From a virus, in IMG/VR virus record IMGVR_UViG_3300045988_103705: a stretch of DNA of 17,566 bases; one strand, given 5' to 3'. A program made the translations under genes and the position numbers. The notes beneath the pieces were generated by a model. That model was not told the origin of the DNA. It did no database searches and saw only the letters and a program-made list of their open reading frames with translations. The number at the start of each line of letters is the position of its first letter. Within the stretch, counting starts at the first letter, position 1. Shown here one piece after another: positions 4,060-17,434 of the stretch.

Positions 4060-4088
4060 ATAATAACATATAAAATAAAGATTGTCAA
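4060..4088 (-). promoter_or_regulatory. Promoter TTGACA-N17-TATTAT driving the wHTH regulator gene. The -35 overlaps the thyX stop codon.
   Basis: Minus strand reads TTGACA ATCTTTATTTTATATGT TATTAT, followed by AAAGAGGAAAA and the ATG. Confidence 0.55.
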
Positions 4089-4711
4089 TCAAGAGCAATA
4101 TCATCAAAGATTACAGGGATTTTTTCCTTGACTTTATTAAGTGCAATAATTGCTACTTCTCTTATTTGCGGATGGGCGGCTGAAGAGCAGCGAAGCTTGA
4201 AGAAATGCCGCCACTCCCGCAAATTCGCAGTCATAACTACCTCTGTTTTTAAACTATTAGGTAGAACTGCTCTTGCTTCCTAAGGAGTGCATCCGGCAGA
4301 GAGCATATTAAAATATTCTTCTTCCGCATTTTGACAAGCATTATACCAATGATTGTAGGCTGGACTGCTCTTGATTAAGAAACAAGGTTCAATAACAGTA
4401 ATTTCATTTCCGAACCCGTCTTTTGAATAATTGCAATATCTTGTAGATTCTTGACAATAGGCAGCCAATCTATGACGAACAATTTCATGGCTAACACCTC
4501 TATCGCAAATAAATTTAAGAGTAAAAGAGCAATGCTCGAGGACTGCTTCATGTCCTCTTTTAATAATATTCTAAACAAATTTTACAGCACTATCTTCTGT
4601 AATCTTATCTTCAGATTTATAACAAACTCTACCGCACTGTTCAATTCGTTTAAGAATTATCTTACCGTCAATAGGTGTAATCAGTTCAACATCTGGCTTA
4701 ATAATTTTCAT
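4085..4711 (-). CDS. thyX: Flavin-dependent thymidylate synthase ThyX with two in-frame TAG codons (4571-4573 and 4280-4282). Stop is TGA.
   Basis: One frame gives MKIIKPDVELITP...KFV[TAG]NIIKRGHEAVLEHCSFTLKF...HEIVRHRLAAYCQESTRY (the RHR-x7-S-x-R ThyX motif) ...SAGCTP[TAG]EARAVLPNSLKTEVVMTANLREWRHFFKLRCSSAAHPQIREVA. The ORF-track pieces 4375..4578 and 4280..4468 are fragments of this gene. RBS AGGAATAAT upstream. Confidence 0.85.
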
Positions 4712-4712
4712 A

Positions 4713-4988
4713 TTATTCCTCACTTAAATTATATCCAATAAGTTCCATACAAGGATTTATTAATCGCAATAATATCTCTACTTCATCAATTACGAATTTT
4801 TCCTTCAAATCTCTATTTTTTAGAAATTCAGAATAACTAATACAATTTAGTCCAATAATTCCATATTGTTCTGCTTTAATTCTCATTGAGCGTGGATTGC
4901 TACATACAAAAATAGCATCATTATCTTTAGCATATTGCATTAGTTGATAGGTTTTTCCAGTACATCTGTTACCAATAATTCTAAACAT
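4713..4988 (-). CDS. Small (91 aa) P-loop NTPase-like protein with a minimal Walker A (GNRCTGKT) and Walker B (FVIDE).
   Basis: Intact ORF. RBS GGAGGG 6 nt upstream. Start codon overlaps the GIY-YIG gene stop (TAATG). Confidence 0.45.
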   Translation of the reverse strand: MFRIIGNRCTGKTYQLMQYAKDNDAIFVCSNPRSMRIKAEQYGIIGLNCISYSEFLKNRDLKEKFVIDEVEILLRLINPCMELIGYNLSEE

Positions 4989-5892
4989 TAAGACCCTCCG
5001 CGAGTGGTATTTAAACCAAAATCTTTCGTTTTATAAAACTCAATCCAATAAGTTTCTCTCTCATTTAAATTTTCCCTTGAAACTTCTTCTAAAATCTCAA
5101 AGGTAAAACTCCAGATTTCTACATGGTAGAATATAGTTTATTGGTTGCTTTTCCGTAAGTTAAAGCAGATTTAATATGTTGTCTAAAACGTTCTTTTATA
5201 TCAACTGACTATCCTATATAGGATTTCCCAGTGGTCAAATCAGTTATCCTATAAATTCCACAATATTTAATTGCTTTTGGGAATAACCGAGCTGTTAATA
5301 TATCATAAGCTGGTTTATAATACACTTCCCATATTAACTTATCTATGCTTTCTTTTTTGACAAATCTAGGTTGCAACTCACGCAATAATGTAATATCATT
5401 TATATCAATTTCATCAAGAGCTAAACGATAGTAATCTTGATTAGAGTCAATCTCTTCCTATCTTTGTTGAGCCTAAATATAAGCAAGTTGTTTAGCTTGT
5501 AAATCCGCTAATTTACTGGATTCGATAGAAATTTTATTTGATAAATCTTGACTTTTAGCATTAAAAGTCATAGTAAGCTCATTTTCTTTTTCTTCATAGG
5601 ATTTTAAAAGCGCGGAAATGCGAATCTAGTATGCCTCATCAGCTTGCTTTTGTGCATTTTCCCGCATTTCTTCCTAAGATTTTACTAGAGAAGAAAGAAT
5701 TTCATTTTCAGAGTATATATTTTCTTTTATATTAGATAATACTTCTCTATTATGTTTTATTTCCTATTCTATCTCTGAGTTTTTCCTCTAATTATTTATA
5801 TTAACTTCAATTATTTGATGCTCTTGTTTCTTGAGATAATAGATATAAATTATTAACCCGATTATAGTAATTAATAATAACCCTATAATCAT
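4988..5892 (-). CDS. Membrane-anchored coiled-coil protein with a C-terminal GIY-YIG nuclease domain. Eight in-frame TAG codons plus an apparent 1-nt deletion near 5105-5108, so it may be a frameshifted pseudogene or carry a sequencing error.
   Basis: ATG at 5890-5892. Protein is MIIGLLLITIIGLIIYIYYL (TM helix), then an EKQ-rich coiled coil containing TAGs, then CGIYRITDLTTGKSYIG[TAG]SVDIKERFRQHIK...NKLYSTM[TAG]KSGV, and after a frame change FTFEILEEVSRENLNERETYWIEFYKTKDFGLNTTRGGS. The span is 905 nt, not a multiple of 3. Confidence 0.55.
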
Positions 5893-5902
5893 ATTTAAAA
5901 AA

Positions 5903-5929
5903 TTCGGGGAGAGTTAACCTCTCCCCGAA
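5903..5929 (-). terminator. Strong intrinsic terminator (11-bp GC-rich stem ttcggggagag / ctctccccgaa, loop ttaac) downstream of the 5935..6210 gene.
   Basis: Perfect inverted repeat followed on the minus strand by a TTTTTT run. Confidence 0.7.
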
Positions 5930-5934
5930 TAAAA

Positions 5935-6210
5935 TTACTCTTGAGCGTCTGGGTCGAGATCTAGCCCGCTTTGAGTTAAATGGAGATACTTTACCTTCTG
6001 ATGAGAACCATCTTCAAGAGTTACCTCATCAGGAACGCGCTCTCCAAGTCCCTTGCGTTGGAAAGCAGAAGTAAAAATACCATCAACTTGACGCTTCTCA
6101 AGTCCAAGAGCTTCAGCAACATCTGCCGCTGTTAAATTTTCACCATTATGCTCCTTTAAATAATCTAAAACCTTACGAGTATTTTCTTTCATAGCTGCCA
6201 TAGTAGACAT
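5935..6210 (-). CDS. Small winged-helix DNA-binding protein in a GC-enriched gene. Putative regulator.
   Basis: 91-aa ORF. wHTH-like LTAADVAEALGLEKRQVDGIFTSAFQRKGL. Codon usage is markedly GC-richer than neighbouring genes. RBS AAAGGAGA; the true start may be the second ATG at 6199-6201. Confidence 0.45.
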   Translation of the reverse strand: MSTMAAMKENTRKVLDYLKEHNGENLTAADVAEALGLEKRQVDGIFTSAFQRKGLGERVPDEVTLEDGSHQKVKYLHLTQSGLDLDPDAQE

Positions 6211-6540: not shown

Positions 6541-7647
6541 TTATGAGAAAATTTCATCTATAATACAATCTTTTGCGTCTTTATCTTCTCTCCACAACTT
6601 TAATACTGGGTGTCTTAATGTATGTTCTTTTTTATCAATAGACATGCAATCAAGAGAAACAACTTTATTAAGATAGTTCTGCGGATTTTCAGTCATATCG
6701 CGCTTCATGTCATCAGTTAGACCAGAACTAACCGTACCTAATTCTATTAGTTCGCCTTGATTATCATAAGCGCCAACTTTAATTGCTGTATTCCATCCAT
6801 AGAAATAGTATCTACTAATAGGGATTGTTCTATAATTGGGAGATCTAATTGCTTTATAGGAATTTATTTTTTCTTGTTCTACCCATACTCCATTCTCGCC
6901 TTGTTTTTCAATAGCCCAATACTCCCATGTATCTATCTCTTTTCCTGTATATTCTTTTGTTGGAGGACAAAAACCTATGCAGATTAAATCAATAGAATCC
7001 ATCTGTTTAATTTTAATTGTAGACCAAGCGGGACGTTTTCCAGGAGTATAAGGATAATCCCTTTTCTTTAAAACCGCGCCTTCGCCGCCACTTTTCAAGA
7101 TTCGAGAGATTTCTTCTTCAAGATTAGTGTCTACTTTTACTGCTAGCCGCAAGAAATTATATTGTGATAAATTATGTTTTTCCCATACTGCCGCGAGGAT
7201 TTTATATCTATCTTCTGCACCGACATTTACTAAATTGATATTATCATATTCAATTATGTCATGTATATAATAATGAATAGGATTATCTTTTTGCCTTTTG
7301 ATAGCTAAATCTGGTAGGCATCCCATTATGCTTGTTACTGTTTTAGATGTTCCTCCAGGATAATAAATCTCGCCAATTAAAATTGTATTTGATGGCATAC
7401 AATTTAAGGCTTCAATAATATGAGGTACATTTGCACCTTTTTCAGAGAGTAATCCAGTTGTTGTACTTGTATTACGAGAAAATAGATAACTGTAGTTATC
7501 TGTCTTTTCAAACTCATACCAATATCCATCAATTTTTTCTTCGAGAAAATAATCTCCAGATTGGCACATTTCAGAAAGCATAGATTCTTTACCAGCAGGT
7601 AATTTCCACACCTTCATAGCATCTATCATTTTAGCTTCAGGATACAT
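6541..7647 (-). CDS. ATP-dependent DNA ligase.
   Basis: 368 aa. Motif I EEKIDG (KxDG). EGAVLKK...PGKRPAWSTIKIK matches the EGhhhK and K-x-K ligase motifs. Confidence 0.7.
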   Translation of the reverse strand: MYPEAKMIDAMKVWKLPAGKESMLSEMCQSGDYFLEEKIDGYWYEFEKTDNYSYLFSRNTSTTTGLLSEKGANVPHIIEALNCMPSNTILIGEIYYPGGTSKTVTSIMGCLPDLAIKRQKDNPIHYYIHDIIEYDNINLVNVGAEDRYKILAAVWEKHNLSQYNFLRLAVKVDTNLEEEISRILKSGGEGAVLKKRDYPYTPGKRPAWSTIKIKQMDSIDLICIGFCPPTKEYTGKEIDTWEYWAIEKQGENGVWVEQEKINSYKAIRSPNYRTIPISRYYFYGWNTAIKVGAYDNQGELIELGTVSSGLTDDMKRDMTENPQNYLNKVVSLDCMSIDKKEHTLRHPVLKLWREDKDAKDCIIDEIFS

Positions 7648-12795: not shown

Positions 12796-13131
12796 TTAAA
12801 TAGGACCATCGAGATCAATGGGAATATCATTAGAGGCTGAAAAATCTTCTGCGGGGATGTTATATGCAGAATTGAATTCAGTTTCTTTTAAAGCTAGGTC
12901 ATAAGTAATGCCGCCCTTTTTGTGATCTGATTTAGCCATTGCTAAATAAAAAGAACAAACTACTCCGTGGGCGCTCCATGGTAGACCAACAAGAGCACTA
13001 ATCCATGGAAGGGTTCCTAAATATCCCATATAAACACACATAAATGCCAAAAGGATACCTGACACAGTCACGACCCATAATAACATACGAATATCATTTA
13101 TAAGTTTTTTGGAAAATTCTAATTTTTTCAT
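12796..13131 (-). CDS. Holin-like protein: two TM segments, charged C-terminus, ATGA overlap with the endolysin stop.
   Basis: 111 aa. Hydrophobic helices LLWVVTVSGILLAFMCVYMGYL and ISALVGLPWSAHGVVCSFYLAMA. Lies immediately downstream of the endolysin. Confidence 0.5.
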   Translation of the reverse strand: MKKLEFSKKLINDIRMLLWVVTVSGILLAFMCVYMGYLGTLPWISALVGLPWSAHGVVCSFYLAMAKSDHKKGGITYDLALKETEFNSAYNIPAEDFSASNDIPIDLDGPI

Positions 13132-14537
13132 TTTAAACCCAGCTTTTCAGCCAATCTTCTTAACATAGTTACAGTTTCTAATCTAGTGCAGAATTTATTT
13201 GGCATCATTCTTCCAGCACTGTCTCCAGCCATAATCCCATTTGCTTTAGCCCATTCAAGATTATCGGTGCCCCAAGTTTCTTTTTCATTAGCTTTATTAG
13301 TAAGCCAAGTATTCATAAGTTCAGCGAATTTCTCGTCAGTCATATCTTCATCATCCTCCTAGATATTTGACATTAAATTATAAACATCTGTTCTTGCGGT
13401 TTCCATGCTTTTTCCAAATTTTGGAAACCAATGGTTTACATCTGCATGATTAGATCCTAACCCTAACTTGTGACTATCAGCATGACATAAAATAGTTGGA
13501 ACGGTGATACCATTTAAAGTAGTGGTTCCCAATGGATTTATGTTATACATTTTACATAAATAAGCAGTAATTTGACAAGCCTCTTCATAAATTTTGTTAA
13601 AATAATTTGCATCATTTAATCCATCTTCGCAAATTTCAAACTGAATCCATCCATTATTACAAGAACCTTTAGACCCAGAACCGCATCCCCAAGGACGATA
13701 ATTCCATGGCATCGTCTATACTGTTGTTACCGTTCCATCAGCTAATTTACCAATCCAACAGTTTAATCCAGCTTGAATAGATATATGATTCCAGTCATTC
13801 TTGCTAGTATTTTTTCCTAATTTATTTATTAAACTGGTATAGTTAGGATCATTATCGCTTGGCTGTACGTATCTTTTTAAATTAGGATTATTTGCACCAG
13901 TACTATGCCATAAGATTCCTTTGACTTGCATGGTGCGTGTTTGTTTATAGCAAGTGCTATTTGTCATCATACATTGAAGTGGTTTATTGCTATCGCTATA
14001 TTTCATTTTATTACCTCCTTCAATTACATTTGAAATGTTAGCAAATTTATTATAATACTATTGACCATAATTAGCCCTCTTTTGTTGCATAGAAAAACTC
14101 TAGTCTGAAGGTCGTTCAAACTAGAGTAATACCGCGGTAGAAGCTTCTGTGACAGAAGTAGCAGAAATCAAAATTTTAACTAAACTAGAAAAACTTGTAA
14201 TTAATTCCTAATATAAAAAATCTAATTGAGTATTTAAATCTCCAATGGATTTACCTCGACTTTGACAGAACTAAAGCAAATTTTGTTTTCTGCTCCAAAA
14301 TGTCCATTGAGCCAATCCATACCCCGCTCCATCTTTTACAAAGTTTTTGTATCTTCCGTCATCAACTGCGGAAGTATATTCTGTATCGGTCATTTTTAAT
14401 TTTTTTTCATATGTGTTCTATAAGTTAATAGAATTAAGTTCACTCTCGGCATAAAGATTGCCCATTAAACCGGCAATTCCGCAATCACTAAAACCTTTGC
14501 CTTTAAAGTATTTCCAAATAACTTGGGCATTAGTCAT
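13128..14537 (-). CDS. Modular endolysin: phage-tail-lysozyme-like domain (GIAGLMGNLYAESELN...QLDFLY...FERP), Amidase_2/PGRP N-acetylmuramoyl-L-alanine amidase, and SLH cell-wall-binding domain. Contains 8 in-frame TAG codons.
   Basis: A single frame runs from ATG 14535-14537 to TGA 13128-13130. Its only interruptions are TAGs at 14418-14420, 14271-14273, 14208-14210, 14121-14123, 14100-14102, 14058-14060, 13716-13718 and 13359-13361. ORF-track fragments 13716..14006, 13359..13712 and 13128..13343 are in-frame pieces of it. Amidase motifs are ILWHSTGANNP and NNGWIQFEICED; SLH motif is WAKANGIMAGDSAGRMMPNKFCTRLETVTMLRRL. An internal SD GAAGGAGGT lies 7 nt before the ATG at 14004-14006. Confidence 0.8.
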
Positions 14538-14539
14538 TT

Positions 14540-15394
14540 TTATTTTTTTGTAATGAAAGAGCTATATCCAGCGGATTTTAATTTATCTTTTAGTCTTTCT
14601 GCATTTAATTTCACAGAGAAAGCGCCTAATTGAACTTTATAAAAAACTCCTACTTTCTTGACATATCCGCTAAATCCTTTCTCTTCCAATTCCTTTAACA
14701 TATTCTCTGCATTGGTTTTAGATAGAAATGCTCCTACTTGAACTCTGTAAAGAACTACCTCTTGTTCTTTCTTAAAATATACACACATTACATTATCAAC
14801 TGGTCTTGCATAAATTTGAGAAGTTTTTCTTTTCCCATCTATTAGTAATCTAGTAGATCCGCCTCCATCTAAATTAATAGCATATTCTACTTTCAATTCA
14901 AGAAAAATTTGCTATAGGGCAGCATAAGCAAGACCTGGAGAATCTACGGTTACAATATAATAATTATTTTTATTCCATCCAATACAAGTCCTGCGGGCTT
15001 TATGATCTAATTCTTTTCCATCTGTTATAACTATCTTTTTGCTATCTACAATTAATGCAGGATAAGCTGCAATAAAATCTCTGGCGGTTTGTAATCTTTT
15101 TAATGTTGTATATATAAGTGTTTTATTGCCGCTAATTGCAACCCCATGGCGAAAATCAGACTAAATAACAGTTCCTTCGTCTTTATAACTAAAGCAGGTA
15201 TTGCCATTGTTCATAGCAAAGAACCCTCCATTAGTAACAATATCTGGTTTAGTAGTCTGTCTTTTATAATAAACATCTGGAGTTTCCGTCGGTTGATTAC
15301 ATAAGGCAAAGTCAATTTTTTCAATGTCTACGAAGGGAATTGTTACAATTTGAACATAAGAATAGAGACTATGTTTTTTAATGCTATATCCCAT
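14540..15394 (-). CDS. NAGPA (phosphodiester glycosidase-like) domain protein with two C-terminal SPOR domains. Interrupted by in-frame TAGs at 15161-15163 and 14912-14914 and an in-frame TGA at 14897-14899.
   Basis: ORFs 15161..15394 (..NGGFF..) and 14540..14896 (AINLDGGGST..., then two SPOR repeats YRVQVGAF.. and YKVQLGAF..) share one frame. The intervening frame encodes ..IVTVDSPGLAYAAL[TAG]QIFL[TGA]LKVEYAINLDGGGS, which fits the conserved NAGPA domain core without gaps. RBS AAAGGAGATAAAGT upstream. Confidence 0.6.
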
Positions 15395-16972: not shown

Positions 16973-17434
16973 TTAATTATTATTGCCCTGACGAAATTTT
17001 CTAACTATCGAGAGCGCCTTAGTTTGATTTTTAATGTAAGTTTTTAAGTTAGTTTCTTCTGTTTTTAATGCTTTTTCAAGTGCGGAAATTCGAGCTGAGC
17101 AGCGTCCAATTGCATAATAAAAGTTTCCAGTGGGGTCAACTTCCGCAGGACTTAATCGCTCATATTTTGTTGCCTCTTGATAATAGTCATATCTATATTG
17201 TAATTCTTTGCGAGTTTTTTTCATTTCATATTGCATAGCATTTATTCTTGCTTTTGATAAAGCGATAGTTTTACCTACCTTTTCAGAAAAAAAATCTTTA
17301 TCGCTTTCCGCTAACTTGGCTCGTCCGCTAAAGATTTTTCCATTATAATTAATTCCAACAATACATATGCCAGATTTTTCATTAACTAGCTATGTAATTG
17401 TTGGAGCTTTATATATAGCACTAATAACACTCAT
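16973..17434 (-). CDS. Hypothetical protein (153 aa) with its N-terminus extended through an in-frame TAG at 17390-17392.
   Basis: ATG at 17432-17434 is preceded by RBS AGGAGA and a promoter. The frame runs MSVISAIYKAPTIT[TAG]LVNEKSGICIVGINYNGKIFSGRAKLAESDKDFFSEKVGKTIALSKARINAMQYEMKK... and joins the ORF-track ORF 16973..17236. Confidence 0.5.

Follow-up and report, generated by a model that had tools for sequence, protein, structure and literature searches.

A predicted membrane-anchored GIY-YIG nuclease encoded by a TAG-rich core gene of recoded gut phages

Introduction

The closest described counterpart of the gene reported here is SNIPE (PD-lambda-1; reference protein Escherichia coli WP_000195116; Saxton et al., Nature 2026, PMC13190303; Vassallo et al. 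2022, PMC9519451). SNIPE crosses the inner membrane once and has its N-terminus in the periplasm, an elongated cytoplasmic body that includes DUF4041, and a C-terminal GIY-YIG nuclease, and this topology has been established by experiment (PMC13190303). It cuts phage DNA during injection and spares a phage genome that is already resident; a form that lacks the transmembrane helix is toxic and attacks the host chromosome (PMC13190303). The nuclease is the most conserved part of SNIPE, the anchor and stalk are variable, and DUF4041 binds DNA and probably tape-measure proteins (PMC13190303). Here we compare with SNIPE and other systems a gene at positions 4988-5892 of the virus record IMGVR_UViG_3300045988_103705 from IMG/VR, a stretch of 17,566 nucleotides ("the window") in which all long open reading frames lie on the minus strand. 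It is very likely that this locus, hereafter the nuclease gene, is a single gene and belongs to a gut phage, related to phAss-1, in which TAG has been recoded to glutamine, and the same high confidence covers its anatomy, its synteny, the selection acting on it, and a deletion private to the window. The best overall explanation, to which we assign a probability of roughly 45%, is that the family encodes a tightly dosed, membrane-sequestered nuclease; this figure is a compromise between the high confidence just stated and the much lower one that we place in a particular function, superinfection exclusion.

Two further groups of described systems bear on the gene. The first comprises the phage GIY-YIG homing endonucleases, exemplified by the catalytic domain of I-TevI (PDB 1LN0/1MK0). 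Compared with these enzymes the domain order of the nuclease gene is reversed, with the nuclease at the C-terminus; a transmembrane anchor and a stalk take the place of NUMOD, helix-turn-helix (HTH) or zinc finger domains; and the family is not mobile but shows fixed synteny and purifying selection. The second group comprises the TAG-recoded gut phages, which resemble the present case in reading TAG as glutamine, in carrying their own tRNA(CUA), and in concentrating TAG in lysis and late genes (PMC10607447; 10.1101/2021.08.26.457843; PMC9523058). In the literature on TAG-recoded phages we found no description of the nuclease family or of its TAG enrichment within the replication module. The GIY-YIG domain, TAG recoding and, since 2026, the principle of a membrane-tethered nuclease were already known; what is new is a large phage-core family without a name, built from parts other than those of SNIPE and repeatedly enriched in TAG.

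Results

Read on the minus strand from its ATG (5892-5890), the nuclease gene begins MIIGLLLITIIGLIIYIYYLKKQEH, and its start frame crosses eight TAG codons and no TAA or TGA up to ..STM(TAG)KSGV. Downstream of KSGV the other frame carries FTFEILEEVSRENLNERETYWIEFYKTKDFGLNTTRGGS and ends in the TAA at 4990-4988. A frame of 303 codons free of TAA and TGA in DNA of 30% GC, together with hundreds of full-length homologs, argues that this is not a chance open reading frame. An earlier reading made from the letters of the window alone (the sequence-only reading) had noted the change of frame after KSGV, and the change is real, since GIY, YIG, R and H lie in one frame and E and N in another. A separate gene for the N-terminal part, which would have refuted that reading, is contradicted by relatives, in which there is one gene. 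The order that it described, a transmembrane helix, a long helix and a complete C-terminal GIY-YIG domain, recurs in relatives within a single open reading frame. Coordinates are collected in table 1.

Table 1. Features of the nuclease locus in window coordinates.
Feature	Position	Strand	Remarks
Whole nuclease gene	4988..5892	-	303 aa in relatives (TAG = Gln); two frames here
Codons 1-20, predicted single transmembrane helix MIIGLLLITIIGLIIYIYYL	5833..5892	-	Hydropathy; same pattern in relatives
Codons 21-150, Q/E/K-rich long helix (stalk)	5443..5832	-	AlphaFold2 helix 2-150
Codons 151-210, conserved small helical domain (QDYYRL..LLRELQ..KKESIDKLIWEVYYKPAYD)	5263..5442	-	
Codons 211-262, first two thirds of GIY-YIG domain, start-codon frame	5107..5262	-	GIY 212-214, YIG 225-227, R235, H239
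TAG codon 228, Q of YIGQS	5209..5211	-	Column: TAG 17, Gln 21, Lys 1 (39 orthologs)
Junction of the 7-nt deletion	5105..5109	-	Placement ambiguous by 2-nt TT microhomology
Last third of GIY-YIG domain (TFEILEEV..NERETYWIEFYKTKDFGLNTTRGGS*)	4988..5104	-	E282, N297; out of frame here
Intrinsic-terminator hairpin	5902..5930	-	12-bp stem, 7 G-C pairs, 5-nt loop, then U6
Upstream 91-aa gene, possibly winged-helix/HTH	5935..6210	-	Directly upstream in nearly all relatives, to 32% nuclease identity
Downstream 91-aa mini P-loop protein	4713..4988	-	Walker A GNRCTGKT, Walker B-like VIDEVE; phrog_1828 (unknown function)

Residues 2-20 are the sole strongly hydrophobic stretch of the protein (Kyte-Doolittle 19-residue mean 2.61; the runner-up reaches 0.65). 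The N-terminal tail ahead of this helix is uncharged and the helix is followed by KK; all members compared likewise lack a charge ahead of the helix and have K or R just behind it. Given the absence of charge before the helix and the K/R after it, the positive-inside rule predicts an N-out/C-in topology with the body of the protein in the cytoplasm. A cleavable signal peptide or a releasable anchor of the signal-arrest-release (SAR) type was considered and is unlikely for a helix that is rich in I and L (Kyte-Doolittle 2.6), has an uncharged n-region and lacks an AXA-like site. An AlphaFold2 model (29 sequences, mean predicted local distance difference test score, pLDDT, of 87) shows one unbroken helix over residues 2-150 with a pLDDT of about 90, a small helical domain at 152-203 (helices 161-176 and 180-203), and a beta-beta-alpha-alpha-beta-alpha GIY-YIG fold at 212-288. 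The stalk is probably a coiled coil, as the sequence-only reading proposed, being a Q/E/K-rich helix of about 130 residues with weak matches to SMC-type coiled-coil models (MksF, LmuB and JetC). The domain at 151-210 matched no Pfam family and no solved fold.

The C-terminal nuclease is very probably of the I-TevI type, with all catalytic residues conserved in the family. On the frame-joined translation, the Pfam GIY-YIG domain (PF01541) matches residues 211-289 with an E-value of 2.8e-9, the NCBIfam model TIGR01453 'group I intron endonuclease' reaches 61.1 bits, above its cut-off of 56.05, and the PHROGs matches are phrog_314, phrog_5123 and phrog_7168, 'homing endonuclease'. G212-I213-Y214, Y225-I226-G227, R235, H239, E282 and N297 are invariant in 29 relatives; the motifs, the R/H/E/N residues and the fold are thus those of the GIY-YIG superfamily. 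Mean pairwise identity is 0.46 in the anchor, 0.35 in the stalk (21-127), 0.74 in the junction helix (128-150), 0.69 in the middle domain and 0.81 in the nuclease. The middle domain and the GIY-YIG domain together form a compact module of 176 residues that may interest enzymologists.

The in-frame TAG codons of the nuclease gene are exactly eight, at codons 35, 43, 73, 89, 140, 145, 228 and 258 (window positions 5788-5790, 5764-5766, 5674-5676, 5626-5628, 5473-5475, 5458-5460, 5209-5211 and 5119-5121). This is the highest density in the window, as had been noted from the letters alone (2.6 per 100 codons, compared with 1.7 for the lysin). That TAG is a sense codon had likewise been assumed, and comparison with relatives shows that it is read as glutamine: orthologs alternate TAG with CAA or CAG at shared columns. 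Among 39 orthologs collected with their DNA, which contain 0 to 15 in-frame TAG codons each, column 135 holds TAG in 18 and Gln in 13 and column 140 holds TAG in 20 and Gln in 10; over TAG-aligned columns the share of Gln is 19%, against a background of 5%. A pattern search also found a tRNA with anticodon CUA on contigs of the close relatives L006, L008, L009 and L013, so that both marks of a code-15 recoded gene, TAG aligned with Gln and tRNA(CUA) on contigs of relatives, are present. There are no tRNA genes in the window or, phAss-1 excepted, in the loci of 12-21 kb around the nuclease gene.

Reading TAG as sense also repairs other genes of the window, all on the minus strand: ThyX (2 TAG; 4085-4723), a Phage_lysozyme2+Amidase_2 lysin (8 TAG; 13128-14537), a NAGPA/SPOR protein (2 TAG; 14540-15394) and a 153-aa protein (1 TAG; 16973-17434), and DnaB (745-1050) continues across the TAG at 745-747. 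No TAG occurs in the genes for the topoisomerase subunits, ligase, RNase H, YorF, AAA_24, YorH and PhoH or in a holin-like 111-aa gene. TAG makes up 40% of the Gln codons of the nuclease gene in the window and 52% (13/25) in the 58% identical ortholog of contig L004, the top share among the genes of that locus, where most replication genes lack TAG and lysis genes carry it. In two lineages, then, the nuclease gene is the TAG-richest gene within a mostly TAG-free replication module. Only TAG positions 140 and 228 are common to the window and L004 lineages, and TAG sites are mostly lineage-specific; the small number of shared positions indicates that TAGs gathered in the nuclease gene repeatedly.

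In GenBank the sole relative is phAss-1, which is classed in the 'Caudoviricetes code 15 clade' and has Sup-CTA tRNAs; its authors showed that TAG is read as Gln with phage suppressor tRNAs (PMC10607447). It has an ortholog of the nuclease gene, differing from the window in that this ortholog is annotated only as a truncated hypothetical protein of 144 aa, the last 144 codons of the gene (6737-6998 of our phAss-1 locus, L090). About 400 nucleotides downstream lie two tRNA(CUA) genes and a class III ribonucleotide reductase. Standard-code annotation misses or truncates the family, and recoded phage genomes therefore need gene calling with code 15.

The family is large. A search of 5.8 billion protein clusters returned 691 homologs, dozens of them of 303 aa at 54-99% identity and on contigs of 90-150 kb; all members are unnamed in the sources consulted. 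When the N-terminal 209 residues, without the nuclease domain, were searched with HMMER against 1.84 billion representatives, 316 clusters (50% identity) were found; their full-length members have 290-340 aa, and essentially all start with a transmembrane helix followed by K/R and end in GIY-YIG. All 43 of the diverse members tested match PF01541. Neither the window nor the gene has a blastn match among 50,697 GenBank phages, and tblastn with three family members yielded, beyond the nuclease domain, matches only to phAss-1; those in Enterococcus phage EF1, Klebsiella phage cp18 and Synechococcus phage MA10 were set aside as ordinary GIY-YIG genes of the homing-endonuclease type. The clade that carries the nuclease gene very likely consists of gut phages of 100-150 kb, whose contigs are binned with metagenome-assembled genomes of Clostridia.

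Several lines of evidence argue with similarly high confidence that the nuclease gene is a syntenic core gene of a replication and nucleotide-metabolism module, that it is under purifying selection, and that it is not mobile. The gene order topoisomerase, ligase, 62-aa gene, 91-aa gene, nuclease and, often, a mini P-loop gene of 91-103 aa is kept, followed by ThyX or ThyA+DHFR and then by the SPbeta-like YorF/AAA_24/YorH/DnaB. This synteny holds down to about 32% nuclease identity; of about 85 loci, nearly all have the nuclease flanked by the 91-aa gene on one side and by the thymidylate synthase/YorF block on the other. The ratio of nonsynonymous to synonymous substitution rates (dN/dS) lies at 0.08-0.17 over the full gene and at 0.05-0.11 in its C-terminal half.

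These observations bear on the suggestion of the sequence-only reading that the gene is a decaying homing endonuclease, that is, a selfish GIY-YIG gene, degenerating or domesticated, that has lost its DNA-binding domain and in which the TAGs are true stops. Its nuclease domain is indeed of that type (TIGR01453, 61 bits; phrog_314, phrog_5123 and phrog_7168) and the copy in the window is frameshifted. However, TAG columns alternate with CAA/CAG across orthologs, dN/dS is about 0.1, the syntenic position is fixed in nearly all of the approximately 85 loci rather than sporadic, and the N-terminal module is conserved together with the nuclease in the 316 clusters. A Pfam search at E<=1 finds no NUMOD or HTH in the nuclease protein, whereas the true homing endonucleases of relatives show NUMOD1/3. 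Genuine GIY-YIG+NUMOD genes occur sporadically elsewhere in the same genomes, and the nuclease gene of some relatives has itself received an intron-like insertion with a GIY-YIG open reading frame. We therefore regard decay from a homing endonuclease as very improbable.

Near-identical relatives differ in such free-standing genes, two of which may serve as examples: a GIY-YIG+NUMOD3 gene between RNase H and gyrB in L001 (2932-3681) and a GIY-YIG+NUMOD1 gene before YorF in L002 (12302-12964), both absent in the window. The insertion marks one sublineage and is seen in L094 (4001-6190) and L095 (Logan SRR22923234 and SRR22923220), where the nuclease gene is split exactly after YIGQSV by about 1.4 kb that carries its own 309-aa GIY-YIG open reading frame, also with TAGs, and the nuclease frame resumes at DIKERFRQHIK. 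A split of the same type is found in the protein representatives P0123, P0125, P0128, P0131, P0180, P0244 and P0250, several of which share the read-through tail KYRPVKNFSQ. The arrangement resembles an intron, with its own homing endonuclease, lodged in a GIY-YIG gene; an Rfam search of the L094 insertion returned nothing at E<=0.01 and no group I intron. Introns with homing endonucleases colonize conserved phage genes in this way.

The change of frame in the window is explained by the DNA of relatives. All of them read KSGVHNFTFEILEE at the junction (KSGV-HN-FTFEILEE), and each of more than 40 near-identical database proteins has 303 aa with HN at this place. Where relatives have GGAG-TTCATAA-TTTTACC the window has GGAGTTTTACC, TTCATAA (coding strand) being missing; the form of the junction that contains the seven nucleotides is GGAGTTCATAATTTTACC. 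With the deletion, H263 and N264 are lost and the frame changes. The explanation proposed from the letters alone, that an A is missing from the A4 run at 5105-5108, would have the same net effect on the frame but is not what happened. Programmed frameshifting was also considered and is ruled out by the continuous open reading frame of relatives. Across the nuclease gene the window is otherwise identical to contigs L002 and L003, and only the copy in the window is disrupted in a gene that is otherwise well kept.

The product encoded here has 275 aa and ends ..KSGVLPLRFQKKFQGKI, with a TAA stop at 5065-5067. It keeps GIY, YIG, R235 and H239 and loses E282 and N297, the former being the counterpart of E75 of I-TevI, which is essential for catalysis. 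Given the loss of both residues, the deletion, if real, should inactivate the enzyme, and the copy in the window would be a loss-of-function allele. It might instead be an artefact of assembly or sequencing, with an intact gene of 303 codons in the source phage. The more than 40 intact near-identical proteins and the strong purifying selection on the family point in that direction, as does the absence of the truncated 275-aa product from a collection of 15 billion proteins (exact-sequence look-up). On the other side, comparison with L003 over 15,892 aligned nucleotides gives four substitutions and the 7-nt deletion as the only indel, which argues that the assembly is not generally indel-prone. 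Moreover, a clean loss of seven nucleotides with 2-nt microhomology is typical of replication slippage and not of homopolymer error. On balance we lean toward a real private allele and leave a substantial minority share to the artefact.

Expression of the nuclease gene is probably constrained by its 5' leader. The predicted terminator (-23.7 kcal/mol, z -4.1) follows the stop of the upstream gene and ends 9 nucleotides ahead of the nuclease ATG. A hairpin with a U-tract occupies the same place in nearly all relatives (L001-L081) and the stem sequences are unrelated; a kept position without a kept stem sequence is as expected of a terminator conserved for its structure. Between the terminator and the ATG there is no Shine-Dalgarno sequence in the window, the anti-Shine-Dalgarno pairing of the leader being +0.1 kcal/mol compared with -7 to -12 for most genes of the window. 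Some distant relatives (e.g., L047, L051 and L081) have a Shine-Dalgarno sequence after the hairpin. From the terminator, the missing Shine-Dalgarno sequence and the TAG load we infer that little of the protein would be produced, and none unless the suppressor tRNA is available. The suggestion of a nuclease that may be toxic and gated by the suppressor fits these two signals as well as the share and lineage-specific placement of the TAGs. The gene would clearly illustrate the idea that dangerous proteins are gated by the recoding of a stop codon.

Discussion

The nuclease family and SNIPE appear to share an architecture, a predicted topology and a pattern of conservation. Both have one N-terminal transmembrane helix, predicted in the family here, with a short uncharged N-tail and K/R after it, an elongated helical or coiled-coil middle, and a C-terminal nuclease of the GIY-YIG superfamily; in both the anchor is poorly conserved and the nuclease is conserved most; and both are borne on phage genomes, SNIPE in a lambdoid prophage. 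They differ in that SNIPE has 500 aa with DUF4041 and a nuclease of the T5orf172/MUG113 type, whereas the family here has about 303 aa and PF01541, and in that SNIPE is a moron of a temperate prophage in the standard code, whereas the nuclease gene is a TAG-full core gene of a large recoded phage. The SNIPE gene itself, which we recovered via a primer sequence from the supplement of PMC13190303, lies between a P22AR-C-domain gene and ren/P/O in the chromosome of E. coli CFSAN061770 (L193 1531-3033), and, traced by its last 30 nucleotides, it occurs in 109 of 5,426 complete genomes of this species.

Homology to SNIPE was considered and rejected. Neither DUF4041 (PF13250), for which SNIPE scores 70 bits, nor T5orf172 or MUG113 was detected in the family at E<=1 or in any of the 43 diverse members. 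The PD-Lambda-1 model likewise has no match at E<=1 (positive control SNIPE, 658 bits), and hhalign of the family profile against SNIPE gives a probability of 4%. The shared architecture stands. Of the suggestion that the gene encodes a membrane-associated nuclease of new function, the membrane-anchored build is supported by prediction, and the novelty is reduced by a precedent of the same build that is not a detectable homolog (PMC13190303). A further candidate, UzuA of the Uzume system, was suggested by a weak PADLOC match (PDLC03973/4, 29-34 bits, model positions 183-277 of 278). UzuA resembles the family in its size of about 280-310 aa and its C-terminal GIY-YIG domain. True UzuA (Lactiplantibacillus/L. 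plantarum plasmid), however, scores 152 bits over positions 5-278 and has a soluble globular N-terminal domain with no transmembrane or long helix, and this assignment was rejected given that the match covers the GIY-YIG domain only and scores below those to generic homing endonuclease models.

Based on the demonstrated mechanism of SNIPE and the common build, we tentatively propose superinfection exclusion as the function of the family, a possibility to which we give clearly less than even odds. The bulk of the protein would face the cytoplasm, and the stalk would dimerize and hold two nuclease heads close to the membrane. The tether would keep a poorly specific nuclease off the host DNA and off the phage's own replicating DNA, while the nuclease would cut DNA arriving at the membrane and so exclude superinfecting phages during the long cycle of a phage of 100-150 kb. 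Output would be kept very low and tied to the suppressor tRNA of the phage by the upstream terminator, the lack of a Shine-Dalgarno sequence and 8-15 TAG codons.

A number of points weigh against this proposal. The function is argued by analogy of architecture, in a family with no detectable homology to SNIPE, and both membrane insertion and orientation are predictions. DUF4041 of SNIPE binds DNA, whereas the 60-residue middle domain here is unrelated to it and has a net charge of about 0. Coiled-coil dimerization is putative, and a crude periodicity test over residues 25-150 peaks at 3.6 rather than at a clean 3.5 residues. Heavy use of TAG groups the nuclease with the lysis genes and suggests late or very low expression, and exclusion is usually an early function. 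Finally, the context of nucleotide metabolism and replication (ThyX, ThyA/DHFR, and ribonucleotide reductase in phAss-1) would also fit the degradation of host DNA.

This last point leads to a different function, that of a nuclease that degrades host DNA for nucleotide salvage, like T4 endonuclease II (DenA, PDB 2WSH). The host chromosome would be nicked or cut and its nucleotides would feed phage DNA synthesis, with the tether and the low dose limiting damage to phage DNA. The neighborhood of nucleotide-metabolism and replication genes suits such a role. DenA is small and soluble, has neither anchor nor stalk, and is 14% identical. We consider salvage unlikely.

The constant place of the gene in all relatives within an SPbeta-like module (YorF, AAA_24, YorH, DnaB, RecJ-like, ligase and topoisomerase) would also suit a factor of replication or packaging, anchored in the membrane, that holds or processes replicating or concatemeric phage DNA. 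The models would be phi29 p16.7 for anchoring and, for processing, a structure-specific GIY-YIG enzyme like Slx1 that trims branches before packaging. Protein p16.7 of phi29 consists of a transmembrane segment, a coiled coil and a DNA-binding domain. Late-type codon usage, which speaks against exclusion, would suit a packaging-stage resolvase. This role seems to us somewhat less probable again than salvage, and the remaining probability lies with something else.

Superinfection exclusion, if it is the function, would have wider consequences. It is conceivable, though we think it rather doubtful, that a large clade of gut phages built a SNIPE-like weapon independently by joining an I-TevI-type nuclease to a transmembrane stalk, kept it as a core gene, and coupled its translation to its own code switch. 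In that event production of the toxic nuclease would be confined to cells already committed to the phage, and the DNA of competing phages (or membrane-proximal host DNA) would be destroyed while the phage's own genome was spared by spatial sequestration. Discrimination of self from non-self by location was demonstrated only in 2026, with SNIPE. A second, unrelated family with more than 300 clusters, a core gene of abundant human-gut phages, would imply that the principle is general and arose more than once, and that phages deploy it on one another in the course of lytic growth.

The genes that flank the nuclease offer additional observations. The upstream 91-aa protein is conserved more strongly than the nuclease (77%, compared with 55% for the nuclease), and a PDB sequence search with it gave non-significant matches to HTH and Z-alpha-like proteins; a match to 'Cas9_a' was likewise not significant. 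Downstream, the ATG of the mini P-loop gene overlaps the stop of the nuclease gene (TAATG), and its Shine-Dalgarno sequence GGAGGG lies inside the last nuclease codons. A recognizable copy occupies this place in about half of the loci, chiefly those of closer relatives, and the protein could be a partner or regulator of the nuclease.

Within the family, synonymous divergence between the nuclease genes of L004 and L015 is 0.13 in the first 130 codons and 1.07 in the rest. This uneven divergence suggests recombination within the gene, with different histories for its stalk and nuclease halves. Lastly, many database members, among them the representatives P0127, P0141, P0162, P0171, P0207 and P0231, end directly after ..YIGQ[SA]V.IGR, where full-length members have W next; they may come from phages or hosts with TGA recoded to Trp that were called in the standard code.

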